64,000 bases of DNA from Candidatus Sumerlaeaceae bacterium (lineage in GTDB: Bacteria; Sumerlaeota; Sumerlaeia; Sumerlaeales; Sumerlaeaceae), in the NCBI GenBank assembly GCA_019695055.1, contig JAIBAT010000063.1:6220-70219 (forward strand). The letters run 5' to 3'. The notes under the pieces were generated by a model, which did no database searches, was not told where the DNA came from, and worked only from the letters and a program-made list of their open reading frames with translations. This document shows positions 9,602 through 57,941 of the stretch, one piece after another. The first letter of the stretch is position 1. The number at the start of each line of letters is the position of its first letter. The translations under genes were made by a program, and so were the position numbers.

Positions 9602-9826
9602 TTACCCTCTTCTCAGAATCCGCTCATATTCATCGTGCAATCCGATCCACACCCAGGTGAAATCCTCGCCTTCTTCAACGGCAGGGGCTCGATGGGAAAG
9701 GTCCACTCGCACGGACCATAAGGCGCCGACTTTCTTTAATTGCAGGCTGGGGTGTCTCGGATCGGCTTTCAGCAGTTCAAATGCCTTGTCGGCCCGCTTC
9801 CGGATACTCGGGCGAAAGGTCCTCAT
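9602..9826 (-). CDS. RelE/ParE-family type II toxin-like protein
   Basis: 74 aa; ...LWSVRVDLSHRA...EDFTWVWIGLHDEY aligns with the RelE/ParE C-terminal block (yRlRvgdyRviY..d....v.il.igHRkdvY). Confidence 0.5.
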   Translation of the reverse strand: MRTFRPSIRKRADKAFELLKADPRHPSLQLKKVGALWSVRVDLSHRAPAVEEGEDFTWVWIGLHDEYERILRRG

Positions 9827-9859
9827 AGTTCTTCCAAAACCGCTCTGTTGCGCGGTGCA

Positions 9860-10060
9860 TCAGAGGTTTTTCAAAGTGCCTTTGGTTTTGGCGTCAGCGG
9901 CTTCCTTGATCAGAAAGTCCAATTTACCTGCGGCGGAATCGGATGCGATTTGAGCATCCCATTTGTTCCAATCATGTTCGAGGAACCAGCGACGAAATTC
10001 GCTGTAGTCCTGATCCCGCAGATTGCCTACGGCCTTTTCGATTTCACTAAGTGTCGTCAT
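9860..10060 (-). CDS. putative antitoxin / addiction-module component (upstream partner of the RelE/ParE-like gene)
   Basis: MTTLSEIEKAVGNLRDQDYSEFRRWF...; small acidic helical protein 33 nt upstream of the toxin on the same strand. Confidence 0.4.
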   Translation of the reverse strand: MTTLSEIEKAVGNLRDQDYSEFRRWFLEHDWNKWDAQIASDSAAGKLDFLIKEAADAKTKGTLKNL

Positions 10061-10267
10061 GTGGTTTTCTTGCTGTTTTGCAAATACCATGGTAAGCGGC
10101 CAATTCATTCAGGGAAAGGCTGTCGAAAAACCAACCGTGTGAGATCTGGGAACAGCGTTTCCCGTTGCACTTTGCCACCACCTCCAACAATAGTAGTCGT
10201 GACAGCTAAGACACTTTCGAGAGCGATGGCTGCCACAACTATTCTGGAGATCAGCATGTGTTGAGCG

Positions 10268-10759: not shown

Positions 10760-11066
10760 GTACTGAGTTTCGAAACCATCTTCATGCAAAGGTCCCTTTT
10801 GCCTTTGTCACAATTGCCAATTGGCCTTCTCGGATTAAGAAGCCATCTGGGAAGCCATGATTCCTGCAAACGGTGCCAGGTCGGTTCGCGGTTCTCAGCG
10901 TAAGGGTCGACAGTCCCAATTCTGGGACGCTCAAATTCGAGGATGCTTCACCTTTTCCCCAATTAACTTTTGGCGCCCACCTGCCAACACCACCCATCGC
11001 CCCGTTCCCTCGGTTTCCTTCGAGCCTTCGTGTCAGGACTTTGCCTTTCCCCCTCTGTGCCAATCT

Positions 11067-11123
11067 GCGAAATCTGTGGAGACGCTTCCTTAACTCAAAA
11101 TTGAGAATTGAGAATTTGAGATT
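11067..11123. repeat. dispersed repeat copy A (GAAATCTGTGGA...CAAAATTGAGAATTGAGAATTTGAGATT)
   Basis: About 75-80% identical over about 55 bp to 16129-16190; contains TTGAGAA heptad tandem. Confidence 0.4.
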
Positions 11124-11655
11124 ATGGGTCTACAAGGGGTTGCAAGGGGTCGTGGGGGAATAGGCAAACCCGTTCCCCCGTGCTACACCCATCCTCAGTT
11201 AAATTGCCCGATCTCCATTCCCGTCACCATCGCACGAATTACAAAGGAATGGGGATACAGCCCCCGCACCGGGCATTGTTCTTTGACATGACCAACAGGC
11301 CAGAAGGCCAACCCGATTCTCATTCGCCCAGCCGGCGTGTTTCGTGGGCAAGAAAGTGCACTTTCACGCACATTTGGACCGATTTTAGTACGCACAATTT
11401 GGCAATTCAAATCGGTTTAAGTGCGCTCTTAAATCATAAGAAACATTGATAATAAAGGACTTGTGCAAAAAGTGCATACCCCCCCTCCCCCTCCCCCCCG
11501 TTCGTAGTTAAGGGTTTCAGGCGGTCTCTCCCAAATCGCGTCGCACTTTCAACAGTTGCAACCTTACTCCGCCGTTCTTCCTCGGCACCCCAGCGCTCCC
11601 CGCCCCGAGTTTCCCGTTGCACACTCCAGCCCCGGTAGATTGGACTCAGCACTCC

Positions 11656-13623
11656 ATGGACGCCTTCCCCATCCGTCCTATCCGCAGGGCGATTGGCTGC
11701 ATGCTTCTTGCAATCGCCGGCCTGATGGCGCCATGCAACGGCGCTCCCGTTCCAATCCTCGCCAAAGTCGTCAACCTGGGAGACGGGGAACTCAAACTCA
11801 GTCCAGCTTGGCCGGAGTTTACCTCCACCACCCTTTCAAATGAACGCGAGCTGCTGGTGGAACTCCTCAAGCAAAGCGGAGTTTCCATTTCCGTTGATGC
11901 CCCCACCATTCACCTGGAAATCGGCAAAGTCGATGTAGCTGTCCGGCAATCTCGTTTCACTCCCCAGCTCCAGGCCGACGCCTACCGGCTCACGGTCACC
12001 ACCAACGCCGTCACCATTCGCGGCGGTTCCCCCGCCGGGGTCTTCTATGGCATCCAGACCCTCGTCCGTTCCCTTTCCAGCAATGGCACTCTCCCGGTCA
12101 TGGAGATCACCGACTGGCCCGATCTTCCCACGCGAATGATCATGGTGGACCCGGCCCGCCAGAACGAGAACTTCGATTACTACCGCCGCGTCATCGAGTG
12201 GGCCAGCCGCTACGGCATCAACGCGATTCTCGTTCACCTGACAGACGACCAGACCGCCTGCCTTCACCAGCCTGACTACCCCGAGCTGATGCATCCCCAC
12301 GCCTGGCGCCCCGATGAAATCCGGGCCTTGGTTGCCTTCGCCAGGAAACGCCATGTCGAGCTGATTCCCGAGATAGAGTCCTTTGGCCATTCCCGCATGT
12401 TTACCCGGCGCGACGACTTCCGCGAGATTCTCCACCAGAACCGCCTCACCACTGGCTCAGGCACCTGGTACGGCACCAGCATCCCTGGCTTCACCAACGT
12501 GCTTTGTCCCGCCAGCGAAAAGGCCTACGACTACCTCGACCGGATGTATGGTGCCGCCGCGGAAACTTTCACCAATCCGGTGCTCCACCTTGGATGTGAC
12601 GAGGTTGACATGACAAGTTGCGCCCGGTGTGAGGCAAAGTTCCCCGGCATTTCCCCCTCGGATTGGTTTCGCCAGCACCTGCTCCGGTGCCGCGAAATCG
12701 CCATCAAGCACGGGCGCATCGCAGCGTTCTGGGGCGACATGCTTATTGCCCATCCTGAGATACTTGATGGCCTTCCCACCTCGGGCACAATAATCTATGA
12801 CTGGCATTACCATCCCGAGGTCACCTCCGAGTCCGCCGCCATGTTTCGCCGCCGCGGCTTCGAGGTCGTCGCCTGCCCCGCCCTCGTCTGCTCGCCTCAC
12901 ATCGTGATCCCCGACGCTCACAACTACGAGAACATCCGCCGCTCCGCCGCGATCGCGCGCGAACTCGATCTCGCCGGTCTCAACACCACCATCTGGATTC
13001 CACCGCGCTATATGTCGGATGTACTCTGGCCGGGAATCGCCTACGCCGGCGCCCAGGCATGGGGTGGCTCCAACCTCGACGAATCCCGCTTCGCCCAATC
13101 CGTCGCGCGCGACCTCTTCGGCCTCGAAGGCACCAATTCCTTCGACACCGCATGGATTGCCTTGGCGGAAGCTGCGCCACACATGGATGTGTTCAACCTG
13201 TGCGCCTGGAGCGATGCCGCGACCTTGGCCAAGGCGCAACAGGCTGCCCCTGAAAAGCGCGCAGAGATTGCCCAGAAGCAGGAGAAACTCCGATTAGCCA
13301 GAAAAGAACTGATAAACTGCGCACCTCGCGTCACCCGTAACGACGATGCTTGGCACGCTGTGGTCCAATCTGCGGACATCCTCGACTACCTCTACGCCCG
13401 CTTCGATGCTGCCAACGATCCCACCCTCACCGCCACCGCCAAACTCCGCCGCCTCGAAATGCGCTGCGTAGAAATCATCGGCTGGATCGAAGCCGACTGG
13501 CGCCGCAACCGCTACGATGGGGATCCCAACATGGACGGGCTGTATCTCCCAGACCAACACCTTCTCCACCGATTCAAGAAGATGCAGGCCTATCACCGCA
13601 GCATTGGAGTGGCCTCTCCATGA
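11656..13623 (+). CDS. glycoside hydrolase family 20-like (beta-N-acetylhexosaminidase-like), secreted
   Basis: Signal-like MDAFPIRPIRRAIGCMLLAIAGLMA; HVELIPEIESFGHS and HLGCDEV resemble GH20 catalytic blocks (IPEID.PGH / HxGGDE). Confidence 0.55.
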   Translation: MDAFPIRPIRRAIGCMLLAIAGLMAPCNGAPVPILAKVVNLGDGELKLSPAWPEFTSTTLSNERELLVELLKQSGVSISVDAPTIHLEIGKVDVAVRQSRFTPQLQADAYRLTVTTNAVTIRGGSPAGVFYGIQTLVRSLSSNGTLPVMEITDWPDLPTRMIMVDPARQNENFDYYRRVIEWASRYGINAILVHLTDDQTACLHQPDYPELMHPHAWRPDEIRALVAFARKRHVELIPEIESFGHSRMFTRRDDFREILHQNRLTTGSGTWYGTSIPGFTNVLCPASEKAYDYLDRMYGAAAETFTNPVLHLGCDEVDMTSCARCEAKFPGISPSDWFRQHLLRCREIAIKHGRIAAFWGDMLIAHPEILDGLPTSGTIIYDWHYHPEVTSESAAMFRRRGFEVVACPALVCSPHIVIPDAHNYENIRRSAAIARELDLAGLNTTIWIPPRYMSDVLWPGIAYAGAQAWGGSNLDESRFAQSVARDLFGLEGTNSFDTAWIALAEAAPHMDVFNLCAWSDAATLAKAQQAAPEKRAEIAQKQEKLRLARKELINCAPRVTRNDDAWHAVVQSADILDYLYARFDAANDPTLTATAKLRRLEMRCVEIIGWIEADWRRNRYDGDPNMDGLYLPDQHLLHRFKKMQAYHRSIGVASP

Positions 13624-14600
13624 CAGAGAAGCCGGGCATCGAGCCTGAACCGGATTCAGCTGCGCCTAGGCAAGCGCTGGCACCGGAGGACGACCTTGCA
13701 GGTGCGTTAACTCCGGACGCGCCCAACCGCAAATACAAACAGTTTACAACCATGGTGGGAGCCTTTGTTGGAGCCTTCATGGTGCTTCTTGCATTGGTAG
13801 TGGACGTATCGTGGCCCATCCCCGGCCGGGATTTGTTCGACTCTCCGAGTTTGCACCACCTTTACTTTATCGTGAATTTGCCGGGTTACTGGCTGACCGA
13901 TCAGCTTCTCGGTGTGCGATATGGCCTCAGTGATTTGCGGATTTGGTTCACCGTACATCTCATCGGCATATTTATCCAATGGTTGCTTGTCGGGCTGGTT
14001 GTTGGCTTGGCTGTTGATTGCGCAGGAGACACGATCCGCTGGATTCGTACTCATTGGGACTACCGGCTGGTTTTTCGTTCAGTGCTATTGGCGGTAGTTG
14101 CTTTAATTATCATTGGCGCCCTGAACCCCCTGGATTTGGGGTCGAGACGAGGTACGGTAGCAAGAGTTCGGTCAGATATGCGGTCCTTCGCCACTGGATT
14201 GGAATCTTATTATGCGGACAACAATCGCTTTCCCCCTTTAGCACCTCTGACTTTTGGGGCGTCTTCACTCGCAGCAGGGTTCATCGAGAGAATGGGGGGC
14301 GCCAACTTGTCTGCCCCACATGCCGGCTCAACGCAGCTTGGCGGACTAACCACTCCAATCAGTTACCTGAATTCTTTGTTCTCGGATCCCTTTGTATTCG
14401 AGAACATTCCCTTTGCCTATTACGCCGACAGCGGGGGCTGGATAGTTTTTAGTCCGGGTCCCGACGGGTTTTACGATATAGTGCCCAATAGGGACTACGT
14501 CTCCAGTAATTCGCAGTCCCTTGATACTCTGCTCAGTAAGTCCTTCGATCCCACGAATGGCACTGTAAGCGGTGGAGATATCTGGCGCGTCAGGCAATAG
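13620..14600 (+). CDS. membrane-anchored pseudopilin-core paralog (polytopic N-terminus + GspG-like C-terminal domain)
   Basis: ATGA overlap with the upstream stop; C-terminus has RVRSDMRSFATGLESYYADNNRFPP...TTPISYLNSL...GGWIVFSPGPDG...FDPTNGTVSGGDIWR, paralogous to the 42657 and 43563 genes; N-terminus has several hydrophobic helices and no prepilin leader. Confidence 0.55.
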   Translation: MTEKPGIEPEPDSAAPRQALAPEDDLAGALTPDAPNRKYKQFTTMVGAFVGAFMVLLALVVDVSWPIPGRDLFDSPSLHHLYFIVNLPGYWLTDQLLGVRYGLSDLRIWFTVHLIGIFIQWLLVGLVVGLAVDCAGDTIRWIRTHWDYRLVFRSVLLAVVALIIIGALNPLDLGSRRGTVARVRSDMRSFATGLESYYADNNRFPPLAPLTFGASSLAAGFIERMGGANLSAPHAGSTQLGGLTTPISYLNSLFSDPFVFENIPFAYYADSGGWIVFSPGPDGFYDIVPNRDYVSSNSQSLDTLLSKSFDPTNGTVSGGDIWRVRQ

Positions 14601-14653
14601 AACAACCGTGAATGGTGCGCGCCTCTGCCTTCAATTCAGAATTCAGTATTGCC

Positions 14654-16027
14654 TCAGTACTTATAAACGCTGCCGCCGATATACTCGCGCATGAGGCTGT
14701 TGCGCGGGATGGCCTCCTCGTCGCGGATGGGCTCGACGGGCTCGAGGAGGTCATGGACCCGCTTGGCGCGGATGTAGGCGTCCAGCCGCGCGGGGGTGTC
14801 GTCATAAGCCGCGATGATGGACTCCATGTGTGGGAACAGGTATTTCTTGTGCACAATCAGTTCGTAGGGCAGCGAGCCATTGATGATGTGGTCGGCCTGG
14901 CCGATGAAGGGCACGATGTACTTCATCTCGCTGCGCCGAACATAGTGCCAGTGCCCCACGGTTTGGTCCGGCTGGTAGTGGCGGTGCCAGCTATCGCGTA
15001 CCATGCGGCGCAGCATGCGCAGGTCAGCCCAGCGCACGAACTCGCCGCGGGCGTCGCGGATCTGGCACAGGGCCTCGATGTAGATCTTGAATTTGAAATC
15101 ATTCGGCACGCTGGACGTCATTGGCTTGTAAAGGCCATGCAGGCTGTCCAGCAGCAGCACCTGGTTTGGCTTGAGTGAGAACGGCACCGTCTTCTCCTGC
15201 CGCAGCCCCGTCTTGAAGTCATAGATCGGTGTCTGGATCTCCTTCCCCTTCAGCAGGTCCGCCAGGTGCTGATTGATGAGCGCGAGGTCCAGCGCCTCGG
15301 GGCGCTCGAAGTCATAATCGCCAAACGCATCCTGCGGGTGCGTCTCAAGGTTGTGGAAATAGTTGTCCAGGTTCAGCGCCACGACCTCGATGCCCTTTTC
15401 CGCGAGGCGCTCGCTCATCTTGATCGTTGTCGTCGTCTTTCCGGAACTGGAGGGCCCCGCGATAATGATGATGCGAAGGTCGTTACGGCGCTTCAGCACA
15501 CGATCTGCCATGCGGTCGATTTCGGCGTGGTAGTTGGCTTCCGCCTCCTGGATCAGCCCGCCAATGCGCCCATCCCGCACCTGCTCATTCAGGCGCTCGA
15601 TGCTGTCGCACTCGTGGGCCACGTTCCAGGTAAACACCTGCCAAAGGGTTTTGTAGGGGATGGTGTCGTTGACGACGATCTGCTCGTCCTTTTCCTCGCG
15701 CTGGCGGGCGTGCTCGGTGCGATATTCGCGGTAGGCCGTGGCCACGTTCTTGTGCCCCTCGGCGTCCAGGGTCCGTACCACCATGTCCTGGATGTTCTCG
15801 ACGGTGGGGTAATCGCCGTTGCTGTAGGCCTCGGAAAGTCGCTGCACCACAATGTCCGACAACCGCTCCGCCAGGCTGCGGTCTTCCAGCTTCTGGCTGA
15901 GTTGCGCCTTGTAGATGGCGTGGGTGATGCGCTCCTGGTCGAATACGACCTGCACGCCGCTGCGCTTGACGATATACTCGGGGTGGCTGGTGACGCCCAT
16001 GGCCCCCTCCTTCGCAAAGTCTGGCAC
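14654..16027 (-). CDS. ATP-cone domain protein fused to a PRK/uridine-kinase-like P-loop nucleoside kinase domain
   Basis: N-terminal IVKRSGVQVVFDQERI (ATP-cone-like); P-loop IIIIAGPSSSGKTTTT...LNLDNYF typical of the uridine kinase/phosphoribulokinase family. Confidence 0.55.
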   Translation of the reverse strand: MPDFAKEGAMGVTSHPEYIVKRSGVQVVFDQERITHAIYKAQLSQKLEDRSLAERLSDIVVQRLSEAYSNGDYPTVENIQDMVVRTLDAEGHKNVATAYREYRTEHARQREEKDEQIVVNDTIPYKTLWQVFTWNVAHECDSIERLNEQVRDGRIGGLIQEAEANYHAEIDRMADRVLKRRNDLRIIIIAGPSSSGKTTTTIKMSERLAEKGIEVVALNLDNYFHNLETHPQDAFGDYDFERPEALDLALINQHLADLLKGKEIQTPIYDFKTGLRQEKTVPFSLKPNQVLLLDSLHGLYKPMTSSVPNDFKFKIYIEALCQIRDARGEFVRWADLRMLRRMVRDSWHRHYQPDQTVGHWHYVRRSEMKYIVPFIGQADHIINGSLPYELIVHKKYLFPHMESIIAAYDDTPARLDAYIRAKRVHDLLEPVEPIRDEEAIPRNSLMREYIGGSVYKY

Positions 16028-16128
16028 AATTGAAAAACGGCGATTTGCTCAAGCCACGATGCGGGTGTCAAGGCCCGCAACACGATCCCGGCGCAACCCA
16101 TAACTCAGAGCTGCTGCTCCGCGCTCTT

Positions 16129-16190
16129 TGTGAAATCTGTGAATGGCTTCTTCTTTCAATTGAGAATTGAGAATTTGGAACTGAGAATTG
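16129..16190. repeat. dispersed repeat copy B, directly upstream of the dcd start codon
   Basis: GTGAAATCTGTGAATGG...CAATTGAGAATTGAGAATTTGGAACTGAGAATTG; 19/20 match with copy A in the heptad core. Confidence 0.4.
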
Positions 16191-16196
16191 TTTTCC

Positions 16197-16730
16197 ATGA
16201 TTCTCTCGGGACTCGAAATTAAGAAGCGACTCGGCGGCGACATCGACATCCAGCCCTTCGACGAGAAACTGTTGAACCCAAACAGCTACAACCTGCGGCT
16301 CCACGACGAGCTTCTCGTCTATGAGAACCACGAACTCGATATGCGCCGCGAGAACCGAGCCGTCTCACTCAAGATTCCCGCGGAGGGGCTGCTTCTTGAA
16401 CCGGGGCGGCTTTACCTCGGTCGCACTCTCGAGTTCACGCGCACGGACAACCTCGTGCCAATGCTGGAGGGGCGATCCAGCGTTGGGCGGCTTGGCCTGT
16501 TCGTCCACATCACTGCAGGCTTCGGAGATGTAGGCTTCCGCGGCTACTGGACCCTCGAGATGCTCTGCGTCCAGCCGGTCCGTGTGTATGCCGGCGTCCA
16601 AATCTGCCAGATTTTCTACCACACAGTGGAGGGCGATTTCGTCCCCTACAAGAGCGGCAAGTACCAGAACAACTCGGGCATCCAGCCCAGCATGATGTTC
16701 CGGGATTTTGAAAAGAGTGATAATTCCTGA
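16197..16730 (+). CDS. dcd: dCTP deaminase
   Basis: MILSGLEIKKRL...NPNSYNLRL...GRSSVGRLGLFVHITAGFGDVGFRGYWTLEM matches the Dcd signature. Confidence 0.85.
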   Translation: MILSGLEIKKRLGGDIDIQPFDEKLLNPNSYNLRLHDELLVYENHELDMRRENRAVSLKIPAEGLLLEPGRLYLGRTLEFTRTDNLVPMLEGRSSVGRLGLFVHITAGFGDVGFRGYWTLEMLCVQPVRVYAGVQICQIFYHTVEGDFVPYKSGKYQNNSGIQPSMMFRDFEKSDNS

Positions 16731-42656: not shown

Positions 42657-43355
42657 TCAGTTTTGACCATTCGTTGCTGTTGTTATGACCGGATTGTAAG
42701 GAATGCTACCCTCCGAGCTTCTTGCAGTACGAATAATATTACCTACACTAACAGTTCCGTTAGTCGGGTCGTAACGTGTATAAACACGGTTAACGCCAAG
42801 TAACGACGGCACGGCAGTGTCGAAATTTCCCGCCTGGTCGGGCCCGAAGGAATAGAACAGCCATCCACCCGTCATTTCAATTCGGGCACCATAATTGGTA
42901 ACCAAGGATGGACTGGCGACATTGGCTTCCAGGAATTCATAATAATTGAAATACGTGTAACGATATCCCGTTCCTTCGCCATAGACGTTTGGGGCCAGCG
43001 GCGGAGGGTTGGTCTTTGGCAAAAAGACATCCTGACCCAATGATGTGATGTAAGCAATGGGTGTGGATATCCATGATGGAACCCTGGAATGGAAAGGGAA
43101 ATTCCCTGCGGTATTGCTTGGTGTTAATCCGGCGTTGGGGTAGTCGGCGGCCGGAGGATATTTGTTCCCATCCACACGATACGATTCCAAAGCCGTTGCA
43201 ATGGACCGCATATCTGCCTTGGTACGACTGACCTTGGCGCGCGTTTGCGCCTCAAGGAAGTTGGGAACCGCTATCGCTGCGAGAATCGCAATGATTGCCA
43301 CAACGATGAGCAGCTCGATAAGGGTAAAACCACGAAAACTAATAGGTTTTCTCAT
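42657..43355 (-). CDS. GspG-like prepilin-type pseudopilin
   Basis: MRKPISFRG|FTLIELLIVVAIIAILAAIAVPNFLEAQTRAKVSRTKADMRSIATALESYRVDGNKYPP; RBS AAAGGA. Confidence 0.7.
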   Translation of the reverse strand: MRKPISFRGFTLIELLIVVAIIAILAAIAVPNFLEAQTRAKVSRTKADMRSIATALESYRVDGNKYPPAADYPNAGLTPSNTAGNFPFHSRVPSWISTPIAYITSLGQDVFLPKTNPPPLAPNVYGEGTGYRYTYFNYYEFLEANVASPSLVTNYGARIEMTGGWLFYSFGPDQAGNFDTAVPSLLGVNRVYTRYDPTNGTVSVGNIIRTARSSEGSIPYNPVITTATNGQN

Positions 43356-43562
43356 TTGAGCACCCATCCTTTATGATTATGGTATAAAGAGCACCGCCAC
43401 AGGGACACAAAAGCGCCCCAAGGCAACCGATGTTTCTATGTGGCGTTTCGCGCCCCAGTCAAAGCAATTCGCATTTGGCGCGATCCCAAAGGACGCCAAT
43501 GAAAACGGGTGGGTCCCAAGGTAACCCACCCGATCTCTAAGACAAACCCAGTTTGATTTGGA

Positions 43563-44234
43563 TTACGGCGTTGTGTAGAAGTATGCCACCGTTCCCAATT
43601 TGTCGCCACTGCCTTGCGTCCGGAAAACATTGCCGAGGCTGACGGTGCCATTAGTTGGATCATAGTCGCGGTAAACACGCTGGCCCACTACGGCAACTGC
43701 GCCTGGAGTGTTGAACTCATCGCGATCTGGCCCTATGGAGTACATCAACCAGGCCCCTGCCAGCTTCGTGGCTTCGGTGAAGTTGTTCACGTTCGGGGGG
43801 GCGAGAGACGGCGTGACAAAGTAGTACTTAAAGTTGAAGTAGATCTGCCGACGCTCCACGAGGTTTAACGGAGGCGTCAGGGCGCCAACTGTCGTAGAGC
43901 GGAATGGATCCTCGGGCAGGCTGGTCATGTAGGAGATCGGGGTGGTGATATAGTTCGGAACGCGGGAGTGAAACGGTGGGGTCACCAGAGTACCCCACGT
44001 CAGGGTGCCTCCAAATGTCGTGTCCCAAGCTGGCGGATAGGCATTGTTGTCTACTGCATAGGCCTCCAGCCCCGTGGCCAGCGACCTCAAATCTGCCTTG
44101 TTACGACTAACCTTTGAGCGCACTTGCGCCTCAAGGAAGTTGGGAACCGCTATCGCCGCGAGAATCGCAATGATTGCCACGACGATGAGCAATTCGATAA
44201 GGGTAAAACCACGACAACTAATAGGTTTTCTCAT
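43563..44234 (-). CDS. GspG-like prepilin-type pseudopilin (tandem paralog)
   Basis: MRKPISCRG|FTLIELLIVVAIIAILAAIAVPNFLEAQVRSKVSRNKADLRSLATGLEAYAVDNNAYPP; same RBS context. Confidence 0.7.
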   Translation of the reverse strand: MRKPISCRGFTLIELLIVVAIIAILAAIAVPNFLEAQVRSKVSRNKADLRSLATGLEAYAVDNNAYPPAWDTTFGGTLTWGTLVTPPFHSRVPNYITTPISYMTSLPEDPFRSTTVGALTPPLNLVERRQIYFNFKYYFVTPSLAPPNVNNFTEATKLAGAWLMYSIGPDRDEFNTPGAVAVVGQRVYRDYDPTNGTVSLGNVFRTQGSGDKLGTVAYFYTTP

Positions 44235-44516
44235 TTGAGTACCCGTCCTTTACTGAGAGTGATATGTATGGCGTAACCATGTTCCACAAAGGGGCCCATG
44301 GCAAATTGGAGAATTAGGGTTCGCGGTGGCCGGAGTCAAAGCAATTCGCTTTTGTGCTTCGTTCCGCCTTCCGGGGGCAATCGCCTCTTACCTGTCCACG
44401 GCCCTGCAATTGATAAACCGCCCTCAAAACAGACTGCTGAGAATCCTCCATCCTTGGAACCCCGCTCCCGTTCCCGCAGTCTAAGTTCCTAATTCGAACA
44501 AGGAGGCACATCCCCC

Positions 44517-56754: not shown

Positions 56755-56971
56755 GGTTGGTATCGGCGGGCTAGGCAGGGCCCCGACTCCACGGGCGGGC
56801 TCCGTGTGCCACTTTTTGGAGGTTCCCGGTGGGGGGGAGGGGGAGGGGGGGGACTCCCCGAGATTTCTAAAATGTTTATTTTCAGCGATTTGCATTTTGA
56901 GTGGTAGCCCTTTTGGGATGTTTTTTGTGCTTTTTAAATCGGTTTAAATTGCGATGAAATGATGCTTTTGG

Positions 56972-57029: not shown

Positions 57030-57488
57030 TCAGGTTGGGTCGGCGGGTGGGCGGCGTTTGCGGGGAAACAGGTATGGGTCGTCACGCCGAATGTTTTCGT
57101 CGGCGAGGTGGAGGCGGTAAAGCTGGGCCAGGGCGTAAATGCCGGCGTTGACGTCGGCGACGCGCTGTGTGAGCTGTAGCGGATCGCAGGTCTTGATGCG
57201 GCGGCGCTCGAGGGAATGGAAGAGTCGACGGCATGCGACGGCGGCGATGCCGATGGTCTGACCGAGGACCTGGTTGACGGTTTCGGTTGGCTGACCGGCA
57301 ACGGGCTTGTCGTTCTCGTAGAAGACGAGTTCGCCGTTGTGTTCGGGCACATCGTCGGGGTCGGGATCTTCTCGCGGATCTTTGGGGGGGCCATCGGGCC
57401 AGATAGGATCGGGCAGGGGCTGCTTGCTGAGCCCAGTGATGTCATCGCCGAAAGGGTCGGGGACGGGGGTGAGGTCTTCGTTAAGCAT
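57030..57488 (-). CDS. hypothetical acidic Pro/Asp-rich protein
   Basis: RBS AAAGGAG 6 nt before the ATG; no known motif. Confidence 0.4.
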   Translation of the reverse strand: MLNEDLTPVPDPFGDDITGLSKQPLPDPIWPDGPPKDPREDPDPDDVPEHNGELVFYENDKPVAGQPTETVNQVLGQTIGIAAVACRRLFHSLERRRIKTCDPLQLTQRVADVNAGIYALAQLYRLHLADENIRRDDPYLFPRKRRPPADPT

Positions 57489-57941
57489 GGTGATACTCCT
57501 TTTTGACTAAGATGGGAGCATTATGCACGGGGAAATGGCTTTGCCTATTCCCCCACGACCCCTTAGAACCCCTTAGAGACCCATAACTTTCAGTTCTGAG
57601 TTTTGAGTCCTGAGTTCTGAGTTCGGAGTTAAAGGCAAAAGTTGACCACCAAATCACCAAAGCACCAAAAGCACTCAAAATGAAGGGCGCGAAGAAAAGG
57701 CGGTGAACCGAGGAGCACGCGGAGGACGAAGAGAAAGAGAATTGGGTGGGTTGCGAGTTGCTTGTACGATTTAATTGGGGAAAACGTCAAGCAGCCCCGA
57801 ATTTGAGGCCTCTTAAAGACCCAAAAACTCAATACACAGAAGCGCCAAGACGGTGGGCGTGATATTGACAGCGGATTTGGTTGCGTTTGGATGGCTAACG
57901 ATGCAAGTACTGACGCATTAAGGGTGGAGGCCGATTAGAAA

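Follow-up and report, generated by a model that had tools for sequence, protein, structure and literature searches.

Heptanucleotide units are the most over-represented long simple-sequence repeats (SSRs) in many bacteria, possibly as a result of polymerase slippage, according to Mrazek (2007) as cited in later work (PMC4679880, PMC4692102), and heptanucleotide SSRs form a described class that is over-represented in bacterial intergenic DNA (PMC4679880, PMC4692102). The heptamers described so far include the short tandemly repeated repetitive (STRR) sequences of Calothrix and Anabaena, GGGAATC in Xanthomonas, where inverted pairs also occur, and GGGGAYT in Nostoc (PMC4692102, PMC4679880). In marine Beggiatoaceae, some Cyanobacteria and Bacteroidetes, TAACTGA repeats lie a few nucleotides upstream of start codons that have no Shine–Dalgarno (SD) sequence, and a translational role has been proposed for them (MacGregor 2015, PMC4679880). 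None of these heptamer repeats has a demonstrated function (PMC4679880, PMC4692102). In Haemophilus influenzae, 7-bp repeats located in the promoters of hmw1A and hmw2A tune expression through SSR phase variation (PMC12721329). Here we analyse a repeat of about 55 bp with heptad units, found in a stretch of 64,000 nucleotides from Candidatus Sumerlaeaceae bacterium (assembly GCA_019695055.1, contig JAIBAT010000063.1, positions 6,220 to 70,219 of the forward strand; hereafter the window). One of its two copies, A, lies in a long intergenic region, and the other, B, lies directly before dcd, the gene for dCTP deaminase. It is a real, genome-specific small repeat of an ordinary nature, made of SSR arrays of a known class.

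Two adjacent simple-sequence arrays

Copy A (11054–11123) and copy B (16125–16190) have in common GAAATCTGTGRA and the exact 20-mer AATTGAGAATTGAGAATTTG. The original prediction of a dispersed repeat of about 55 bp with TTGAGAA heptads, present in two related copies of 75–80% identity, is borne out at the coordinates given there, blastn giving 79% identity over 53 nt. The 18-mer TTGAGAATTGAGAATTTG, with up to three mismatches, has exactly two sites in the window (11101 and 16160), where 0.03 matches are expected and none of 100 shuffled sequences reaches two. In the window, GAAATCTGTGRA occurs at 11069 and 16132 only, upstream of the heptad arrays of A and B. To rule out shared low complexity alone, the 45-nt flanks upstream of the heptads were also compared with the heptads left out, and their score was reached by only 62 of 19925 random window segments (p ~0.003). 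The likeness of A and B is far beyond chance.

Tandem Repeats Finder (TRF) reported only three period-7 arrays with at least three copies in the window, at 11099–11121 (3.1 copies), 16158–16190 (4.7 copies) and 57592–57630 (5.6 copies), all of them intergenic. This corresponds to ~47 arrays per Mb, against 4.8 per Mb (six arrays) in a control of 1.25 Mb of unrelated bacterial DNA that had been fetched for dcd.

The original prediction missed that the 55-mer consists in each half of a simple-sequence array, with a unit type that recurs widely. First come two or three units of (A)ATCTGYGN, and three to five units of TTGAGAA follow, with a gap of 14–18 nt between the ~9-nt and the 7-nt units. Module 1 of copy A (11054–11081, plus strand) consists of three units of 9–10 nt, TCTGTGCCAA, TCTGCGAAA and TCTGTGGAG, and includes GAAATCTGTGGA; it is the sole window match to a pattern of at least two ATCYGYG units, each followed by 1–3 nt. 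One unit of the inverted type, AACTCAA (11092–11098), stands just before the heptad array of A (11099–11123, plus strand; TRF period 7), which reads AATTGAG AATTGAG AATTTGAG ATT and contains the 20-mer shared with B. In copy B, module 1 (16125–16144, plus strand) is made of TCTTTGTGAAA and TCTGTGAAT and includes GAAATCTGTGAA, and the heptad array (16158–16190, plus strand; TRF period 7) reads AATTGAG AATTGAG AATTTGG AACTGAG AATTG. Given this layout of module 1 in A and B, GAAATCTGTGRA is the junction of two ~9-nt units. The same unit family has a further, fourth mini-array of two AATTCAG units at 14633–14646, located in the 53-nt gap between a convergent 416-codon gene and the kinase gene that neighbours dcd.

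The arrays have the characters of the heptanucleotide SSR class, namely at least three head-to-tail units, an intergenic position and several arrays. Like the heptamers of long SSRs (LSSRs) and STRRs, they are built of head-to-tail 7-nt units in three to six copies, lie between genes with several arrays per region, show what looks like a rapid turnover of unit and length between related copies as well as occasional inversion, and have no established function. They differ in the unit itself (TTGAGAA/AACTCAG), in its coupling to a 9-nt SSR (AATCTGYGN) and in the recurrence of the coupled pair in unrelated lineages. No description of a TTGAGAA (or AACTCAG) unit in bacteria was found in the literature searched.

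Very probably, the 55-bp repeat is made up of two SSR arrays that lie side by side and were copied within this genome. The arrays would arise and turn over by replication slippage, and the module would have been copied within the Sumerlaeaceae genome by duplication or recombination. Copy B would then be a 53-nt piece of the same module, located between the divergent kinase and dcd genes.

Units A and C and the p152 cassette

Copy A sits inside a unit of ~570 bp (10930–11499), of which a fuller, inverted copy, C, is found at 57807–56831. The third, looser heptad array listed in the original prediction does exist (57592–57630), but it is not independent, as it lies inside the region colinear with A. 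The two units are colinear, in inverted orientation, over ~320 nt according to the repeat finder, blastn and a global alignment, and the colinear region spans two conserved blocks (box1 and box2) and the arrays and extends to the start-codon position of a gene in C that we call p152. Three inverted matches, all colinear, connect A and C: 10930–10966 with 57771–57807 (89%), 11092–11183 with 57525–57616 (79%), and a perfect match of a C-rich 21-mer at 11479–11499 with 56831–56851.

The first of these matches is box1 (CTCAAATTCGAGGATGCTTCACCTTTTCCCCAATTAA; plus strand in A and, by the repeat finder, minus strand in C), which forms the outer boundary of the unit. Box2 of A (11122–11183, plus strand), which starts with TTATGGGTCTnnAAGGGGTTnnAAGGGGTCGTGGGGGAATAGGCAAA, is 88.7% identical over 62 nt to 57586–57525, that is, to box2 of C (57525–57586, minus strand), and one 25-mer is exact in both. 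It contains two to three copies of a 10-nt direct repeat, nnAAGGGGTy, and a GGGGGAA/TTCCCCC hairpin; box2 of C includes a promoter-like TAGGCA-16-CATAAT at 57547–57520. The 10-nt repeats abut this promoter-like site in C, in a layout that resembles response-regulator (pho-box-like) sites, and box2 has kept its 89% identity between A and C although the adjoining heptads changed unit. The C-rich 21-mer, CCCCCCCTCCCCCTCCCCCCC (plus strand in A, minus strand and 100% complementary in C), is the inner boundary, right after which the similarity ends. Its perfect conservation is odd for a slippage-prone tract, and its G-rich strand could form a G-quadruplex.

The cargo of the intact unit C is p152 (57030–57488, minus strand), an ORFan of 152 codons preceded by the SD sequence AAAGGAG and 100% identical to the NCBI protein K1X53_05520. 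Among 5.8 billion proteins it matched itself and one 66%-identical paralog from the same metagenome-assembled genome (MAG), K1X53_08290; neither Pfam nor PHROG gave a match. Its N-terminal half is rich in proline and aspartate, and its C-terminal half is helical. In unit A, the counterpart of the p152 5′ untranslated region (UTR; 11184–11218, plus strand) has decayed: the SD sequence and the ATG are lost and, in the global alignment, the coding sequence is missing downstream, and tblastn with p152 found no remnant of it in A. The original prediction had also missed that copy A belongs to a larger duplicate of the p152 cassette, now decayed; as judged from the alignments, what was duplicated is the non-coding frame of this ORFan cassette, the intact copy of which is C. 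What copy B has in common with A is limited to the 53 nt of module 1 and heptads; box1 and box2 are both absent from B.

An ATG does follow copy A, at 11124, and it opens an open reading frame (ORF) of 55 codons, not of 13 as previously stated. The equivalent ATG in C reads ATG GGT CTC TAA and meets a stop after three codons; as it is not conserved in the homologous C, the 55-codon ORF is not a gene. The description of the surroundings of A as a low-GC islet was correct (GC 0.49–0.51 against ~0.59).

The arrays have fared differently from box2. On the strand colinear with A, the heptad array of C (57592–57630, minus strand; TRF) is (AACTCAG)x5.6, and the position of module 1 is occupied by an octamer array, (CTTTGGTG)x3.9 (57647–57679, minus strand; TRF), which has no significant similarity to module 1 (alignment score 5–6, the background level). 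Both unit number and unit sequence differ between these homologous copies, and the change from AATTGAG in A to AACTCAG in C consists of the same two substitutions out of seven positions in every copy. Such a concerted change of unit beside an 89%-identical box2 is what is expected of slippage-driven turnover. The comparison suggests that the heptad sequence at A and C is not under strong constraint.

This last point bears on the possibility, raised in the original prediction as a regulator-binding array, that the 7-, 9- and 10-nt repeats are protein-binding iterons, that is, putative operators co-regulating dcd and the p152 paralogs. The operators of the omega repressor of plasmid pSM19035 are contiguous 7-bp WATCACW units, direct or inverted, upstream of promoters. 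By analogy, a ribbon-helix-helix protein like omega could read the heptads, or a winged-helix response regulator could act on the AAGGGGT repeats of box2. Consistent with such a role, GAAATCTGTGRA and the heptads are about equally far apart in A and B, small palindromes stand at the array starts (TCAATTGA in B, CTCAAAATTGAG in A), and box2, conserved at 89% between A and C, has its 10-nt repeats abutting the promoter-like site. However, box2 has been conserved between A and C but the heptad unit has not, and the heptads look unconstrained. Moreover, the units do not match WATCACW, the context is chromosomal, and no candidate regulator gene is adjacent, Pfam analysis of the neighbouring ORFs showing no ribbon-helix-helix regulator. 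We therefore consider iterons quite improbable.

The geometry of A and C also raises the question of mobility. The two units are inverted, lie 46 kb apart and are each bounded by box1 on the outside and by the C-rich 21-mer on the inside, which is in favour of a miniature mobile element, resembling miniature inverted-repeat transposable elements or repetitive extragenic palindromes, or of something larger, a 46-kb segment with A and C at its ends that could move or invert. Against this, the unit has no terminal inverted repeats, neither target duplications nor a transposase are present, the 46-kb interior holds housekeeping genes and tRNAs, and B shares 53 nt only. The mobile or miniature-element remnant envisaged in the original prediction finds no more support in the 55-bp repeat itself, where terminal inverted repeats, target duplications and a hairpin are lacking and neither A nor B has ends that form inverted repeats. 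The flanks outside the SSRs have no match in any fetched locus or collection, nor do they occur in 596 Gb of genomes or in the metagenome collection. Mobility thus appears extremely unlikely, and of the original interpretation it is the genuine small, promoter-proximal repeat with heptads that stands. The idea that the 46 kb from A to C had been inverted was also considered and rejected, as the GC skew does not switch at A.

Negative between ~2.5 and 56 kb, the skew is positive from 56.5 kb onward and has its cumulative minimum beside C; the switch there may reflect the strand or composition of the local genes. A replication origin (oriC) near C was rejected, as there is no dnaA among the neighbours and no DnaA-box cluster; TTATCCACA, with up to one mismatch, has 10 matches against 6.7 expected, none of them clustered at A, B or C.

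Copy B and the start of dcd

As had been noticed, 6 nt separate the end of copy B from the dcd start codon: dcd (16197–16730, plus strand; Pfam DCD, E=2.4e-39) starts with the ATG at 16197, and its M-I-L start is conserved in relatives. The divergent neighbour is an ATP-cone/uridine-kinase gene (14654–16000, minus strand; Pfam ATP-cone and PRK), the product of which is 100% identical to the NCBI protein K1X53_05310. No SD sequence precedes dcd, whereas both the kinase gene (GAAGGAGG) and p152 (AAAGGAG) have strong ones.

The heptad array of B contains a predicted sigma-70-like site (16160–16188, plus strand), called by consensus match only, in which TTGAGA and GAGAAT are separated by 17 nt. 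The site matches 9 of the 12 consensus positions and ends 8 nt before the dcd ATG: TTGAGA agrees with TTGACA at five of six positions, GAGAAT keeps the critical A2 and T6 of TATAAT, and C-A is found at the predicted transcription start of dcd. It is the sole promoter-like site on either strand of 15950–16250, where 0.1 would be expected. As three heptads make 21 bp, four or more TTGAGAA units automatically put TTGAGA and GAGAAT 17 bp apart. Among the three arrays, sigma-70 hexamers with a spacer of 16–18 nt upstream of a gene are found, by consensus, for B only.

A hexamer pair that ends 8 nt before an SD-less ATG would imply a dcd core promoter and a leaderless mRNA. The heptad array of B would be cis-regulatory DNA, acting as the core promoter of dcd; the dcd mRNA would be leaderless or nearly so, and the strength of the promoter would shift with the number of heptad units. 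The arrays of A and C, located 50–110 bp upstream of the promoter-like site in box2, would probably be modulatory at most. We put forward the assignment of copy B as the dcd promoter tentatively, as a proposal somewhat more doubtful than probable. When the identity of the repeat and its promoter function at dcd are judged jointly, the balance is even, which is a compromise between the two.

The closest parallel to such a promoter is the hmw1A/hmw2A system, where a 7-nt SSR also lies in the promoter or leader; in both cases unit number would change promoter geometry. Unlike hmw1A and hmw2A, dcd is a housekeeping gene and not one for a surface antigen, only three to five units are present, and the repeat itself would supply both promoter hexamers.

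The position of copy B also invites comparison with the TAACTGA repeats. As in these, two to six heptamers end a few nucleotides before an SD-less start codon, the sense strand has stop codons in all three frames, and the distribution across phyla is patchy. The TAACTGA unit itself is not matched, the units being AATTGAG and AACTCAG here; a forward array near an SD-less start is found for B (6 nt from the dcd ATG) and not for A or C, so that one array in three abuts a start codon, and the wider sample described below follows no orientation rule. This precedent in Beggiatoaceae (PMC4679880) and the end of B 6 nt before an SD-less ATG are in line with a role at the RNA level, in which an unstructured, G-poor 5′ UTR would recruit a binder of single-stranded RNA, such as ribosomal protein S1 or a cold-shock protein, and so drive or tune SD-independent translation.

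We searched for signs of such a leader. Rfam at gathering scores found two tRNAs only in the window, and permissive scans of A, B and C gave chance-level hits only. Single-sequence folding gave z values from +0.14 to −1.79 (−0.27 for B, −0.9 to −1.8 for A and C), none of them significant. There is, moreover, no promoter-like site upstream of the array in B; the only one is inside it, which would leave almost no 5′ UTR and disfavours a 5′-UTR role at dcd. The 5′-UTR element controlling dcd translation suggested in the original prediction is consequently possible but unsupported, with neither an Rfam hit nor a significant fold, and we regard an RNA-level leader as unlikely.

Relatives, other genomes and phages

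Contigs from related Sumerlaeaceae (kinase 78–86% identical; ~80 kb) contain neither heptad arrays nor box sequences, and their dcd is not beside the kinase gene, so the synteny is not conserved either. Given this absence, the module is young or lineage-specific. An exact scan with a 21-mer of box2 gave no matches in 185,579 species genomes and the JGI metagenomes, which makes the A/C frame private to this genome.

The best match of a dcd-based search was 76% identical and came from other phyla, dcd being too conserved to be used for locus retrieval. The dcd leaders of Planctomycetota were considered as relatives of copy B and rejected, as their sequence is unrelated. In MAGs labelled as Planctomycetota or Kuenenia (loci L019, L020, L033, L058, L059, L067, L073 and L074), the ~160 nt upstream of dcd are strongly conserved (GCAGTTGAATCC ... 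TACGCTGCGG ... TTCGAACCGGCAGGTGCTTCATG), have no Rfam match and contain one small hairpin with a single compensatory pair. A related Sumerlaeaceae MAG carries a 23-nt tandem repeat, CGGTCAGCGAGTACGCCATCAGG, twice, ~380–500 bp apart beside a URO-D gene, and the copy number differs between two assemblies (L202 17148–17570, L203 17149–17697).

Within the window, two small ORFs (9602–10108, minus strand), one with a weak match to a ParE-like toxin and the other its 82-codon upstream partner, lie ~1 kb upstream of A in the low-GC islet. This pair is consistent with horizontally acquired DNA; the islet genes gave no matches to prophage or defence annotations. A direct repeat of 224 nt with 83% identity (43150–43373 and 44029–44252) is located in two adjacent minus-strand paralogous genes, and a 46-nt inverted match (14173–14218 with 43171–43216) ties it to the 416-codon gene at 13350–14600; a shared protein domain is the probable reason.

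Outside this family, a scan of the JGI metagenomes with the 18-mer gave at least 120 stretches, in contigs with a GC content of 20–67%, mostly genuine arrays of 3–14 units. Arrays of (TTGAGAA)n are also present in Prevotella and Mu-like phages, and by itself the heptad is thus generic across phyla, a further point missed in the original prediction. Module 1, box1 and box2 of the window are in none of the metagenome matches listed. Many of the matches have an AATTTG junction followed by CTGCCGCC; this junction was imposed by the search pattern and is not interpreted. Three controls set the recurrence of the heptad apart from low complexity by chance. In IMG/VR, (TTGAGAA)3 is present in 61 stretches, against 8, 13 and 10 for three permuted heptads of the same composition, which makes TTGAGAA 5–8 times commoner than composition-matched permutations. 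The 0.78 Mb around the metagenome matches listed contain 262 period-7 arrays, of which ~139 have other units (~177 per Mb), a ~37-fold enrichment of other-unit heptad arrays in heptad loci relative to the control DNA.

The nonamer accompanies the heptad. Arrays of at least two (ATCTGYG N1-3) units number 39 in 1.34 Mb of heptad-associated loci against one in the 1.25 Mb of control, the 39 being partly redundant (same or related phage contigs) and coming, on a rough count, from about ten independent contig families. Examples are ATCTGTGAAATCTGTGG, from the Prevotella contig L083, and CCAATCTGCGTAATCTGCGGGAAAT, from contigs of Mu-like phages, the latter identical to copy A at 19 of 22 positions in a manual comparison. 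The Mu-like phage contigs L234 and L208 (IMGVR_UViG_3300026159_000618), L247 and L219 have a GC content of 58%, and L234 and L208 carry Mu-F-like and terminase genes. Nearly all intergenic regions of these phages consist of (TTCTCAA)n, (AATCTGCGN)n ending in GGGAAAT and (GCTCTAACCAGC N3-6)n, co-oriented with the genes and often ending at the start codon. In the metagenomes, heptad arrays often come as inverted complementary pairs 10–45 nt apart (L102, L147, L196, L200, L145 and others), for example (AATGTTG)5.7 with (TTCAACA)3.4 and (TTGAATT)13.6 with (AATTCAA)11.7. Such pairs are long potential intergenic hairpins and occur every 1–3 kb in some contigs.

Array orientation relative to genes was scored, with 14 forward and 17 reverse arrays within 60 nt of start codons in the metagenomes and 22 and 17, respectively, in viral contigs; the samples were 117 metagenome and 72 viral arrays from mixed phyla with crude ORF calls (greedy longest ORF), which makes this a soft negative. 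The absence of an orientation bias weakens the RNA-leader model and matches what a neutral origin predicts. The Mu-like phages, in which (TTCTCAA)n and (AATCTGCGN)n...GGGAAAT abut the starts of consecutive co-oriented genes, are in favour of a leader, but the start-abutting arrays there are in the TTCTCAA sense and that of B is in the TTGAGAA sense.

Directly observed are how the repeat is built, that A, B and C are homologous, that the units recur generically and that no hallmark of an RNA family or a mobile element is present. Several points, however, weigh against our reading of them as slippage-generated arrays, copied within the genome, one of which serves as the dcd promoter. Slippage alone does not explain the presence of the same two units in unrelated lineages. 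The promoter call is a match to 9 of 12 consensus positions only, the arrays of A and C are without promoter geometry, and the lack of orientation preference of (TTGAGAA)n toward neighbouring genes in metagenome and viral contigs speaks against a general promoter role. An SD-preceded start candidate was found in only 26 of 50 crude gene calls, and SD-less starts may be common here. Finally, copy counts for this genome cover the 64-kb window, which limits what they say on genome-wide copy number and positional bias.

Some of these observations could also mean that the repeat is a neutral by-product, a slippage-generated, harmless filler of AT-rich and probably horizontally acquired intergenic DNA with no role at dcd or p152. 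Such an origin would agree with the lack of any orientation or position rule in other genomes, with the absence of the repeat from the ~80 kb of related Sumerlaeaceae and from the region upstream of the 86%-identical kinase gene, with the state of A as a decayed copy without a gene, and with the location of A and C in low-GC islets with ORFans and the ParE-like toxin–antitoxin pair. Published work likewise found no function for comparable heptamer SSRs (PMC4692102). However, the exact identity of A and B over 20 nt, the imperfect third unit included, argues for a recent copy or for constraint. Nor does neutrality sit well with B abutting the start codon of a housekeeping gene as the sole promoter-like sequence there, or with the 5–8-fold excess of TTGAGAA over its permutations. 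We consider an entirely neutral repeat somewhat unlikely, yet a rival to be taken seriously.

The most interesting residue of this analysis lies outside the window, in the 7-nt and 9-nt units that travel together in unrelated bacteria and phages. The two could be parts of one system with sequence specificity, which would have filled intergenic DNA and 5′ leaders in lineages as unrelated as Sumerlaeota, Prevotella and Mu-like phages. The units may then be bound by some conserved factor of the expression machinery, or they may stem from a dedicated repeat-seeding process that phages carry. A single system of this kind would explain the co-occurrence of 39 nonamer arrays against one, the excess of TTGAGAA and the ~37-fold clustering, although on the present data we judge it improbable.

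If the proposed promoter function of copy B is true, dcd, which feeds dUMP and dTTP synthesis, would be driven by a promoter made wholly of a slippage-prone 7-nt repeat. Its mRNA would be leaderless, and its expression could shift stepwise as units are gained or lost. That the two units accompany each other in rumen Prevotella, Mu-like phages and a candidate phylum alike offers a handle on whether such repeats are a selected signal or mutational debris.

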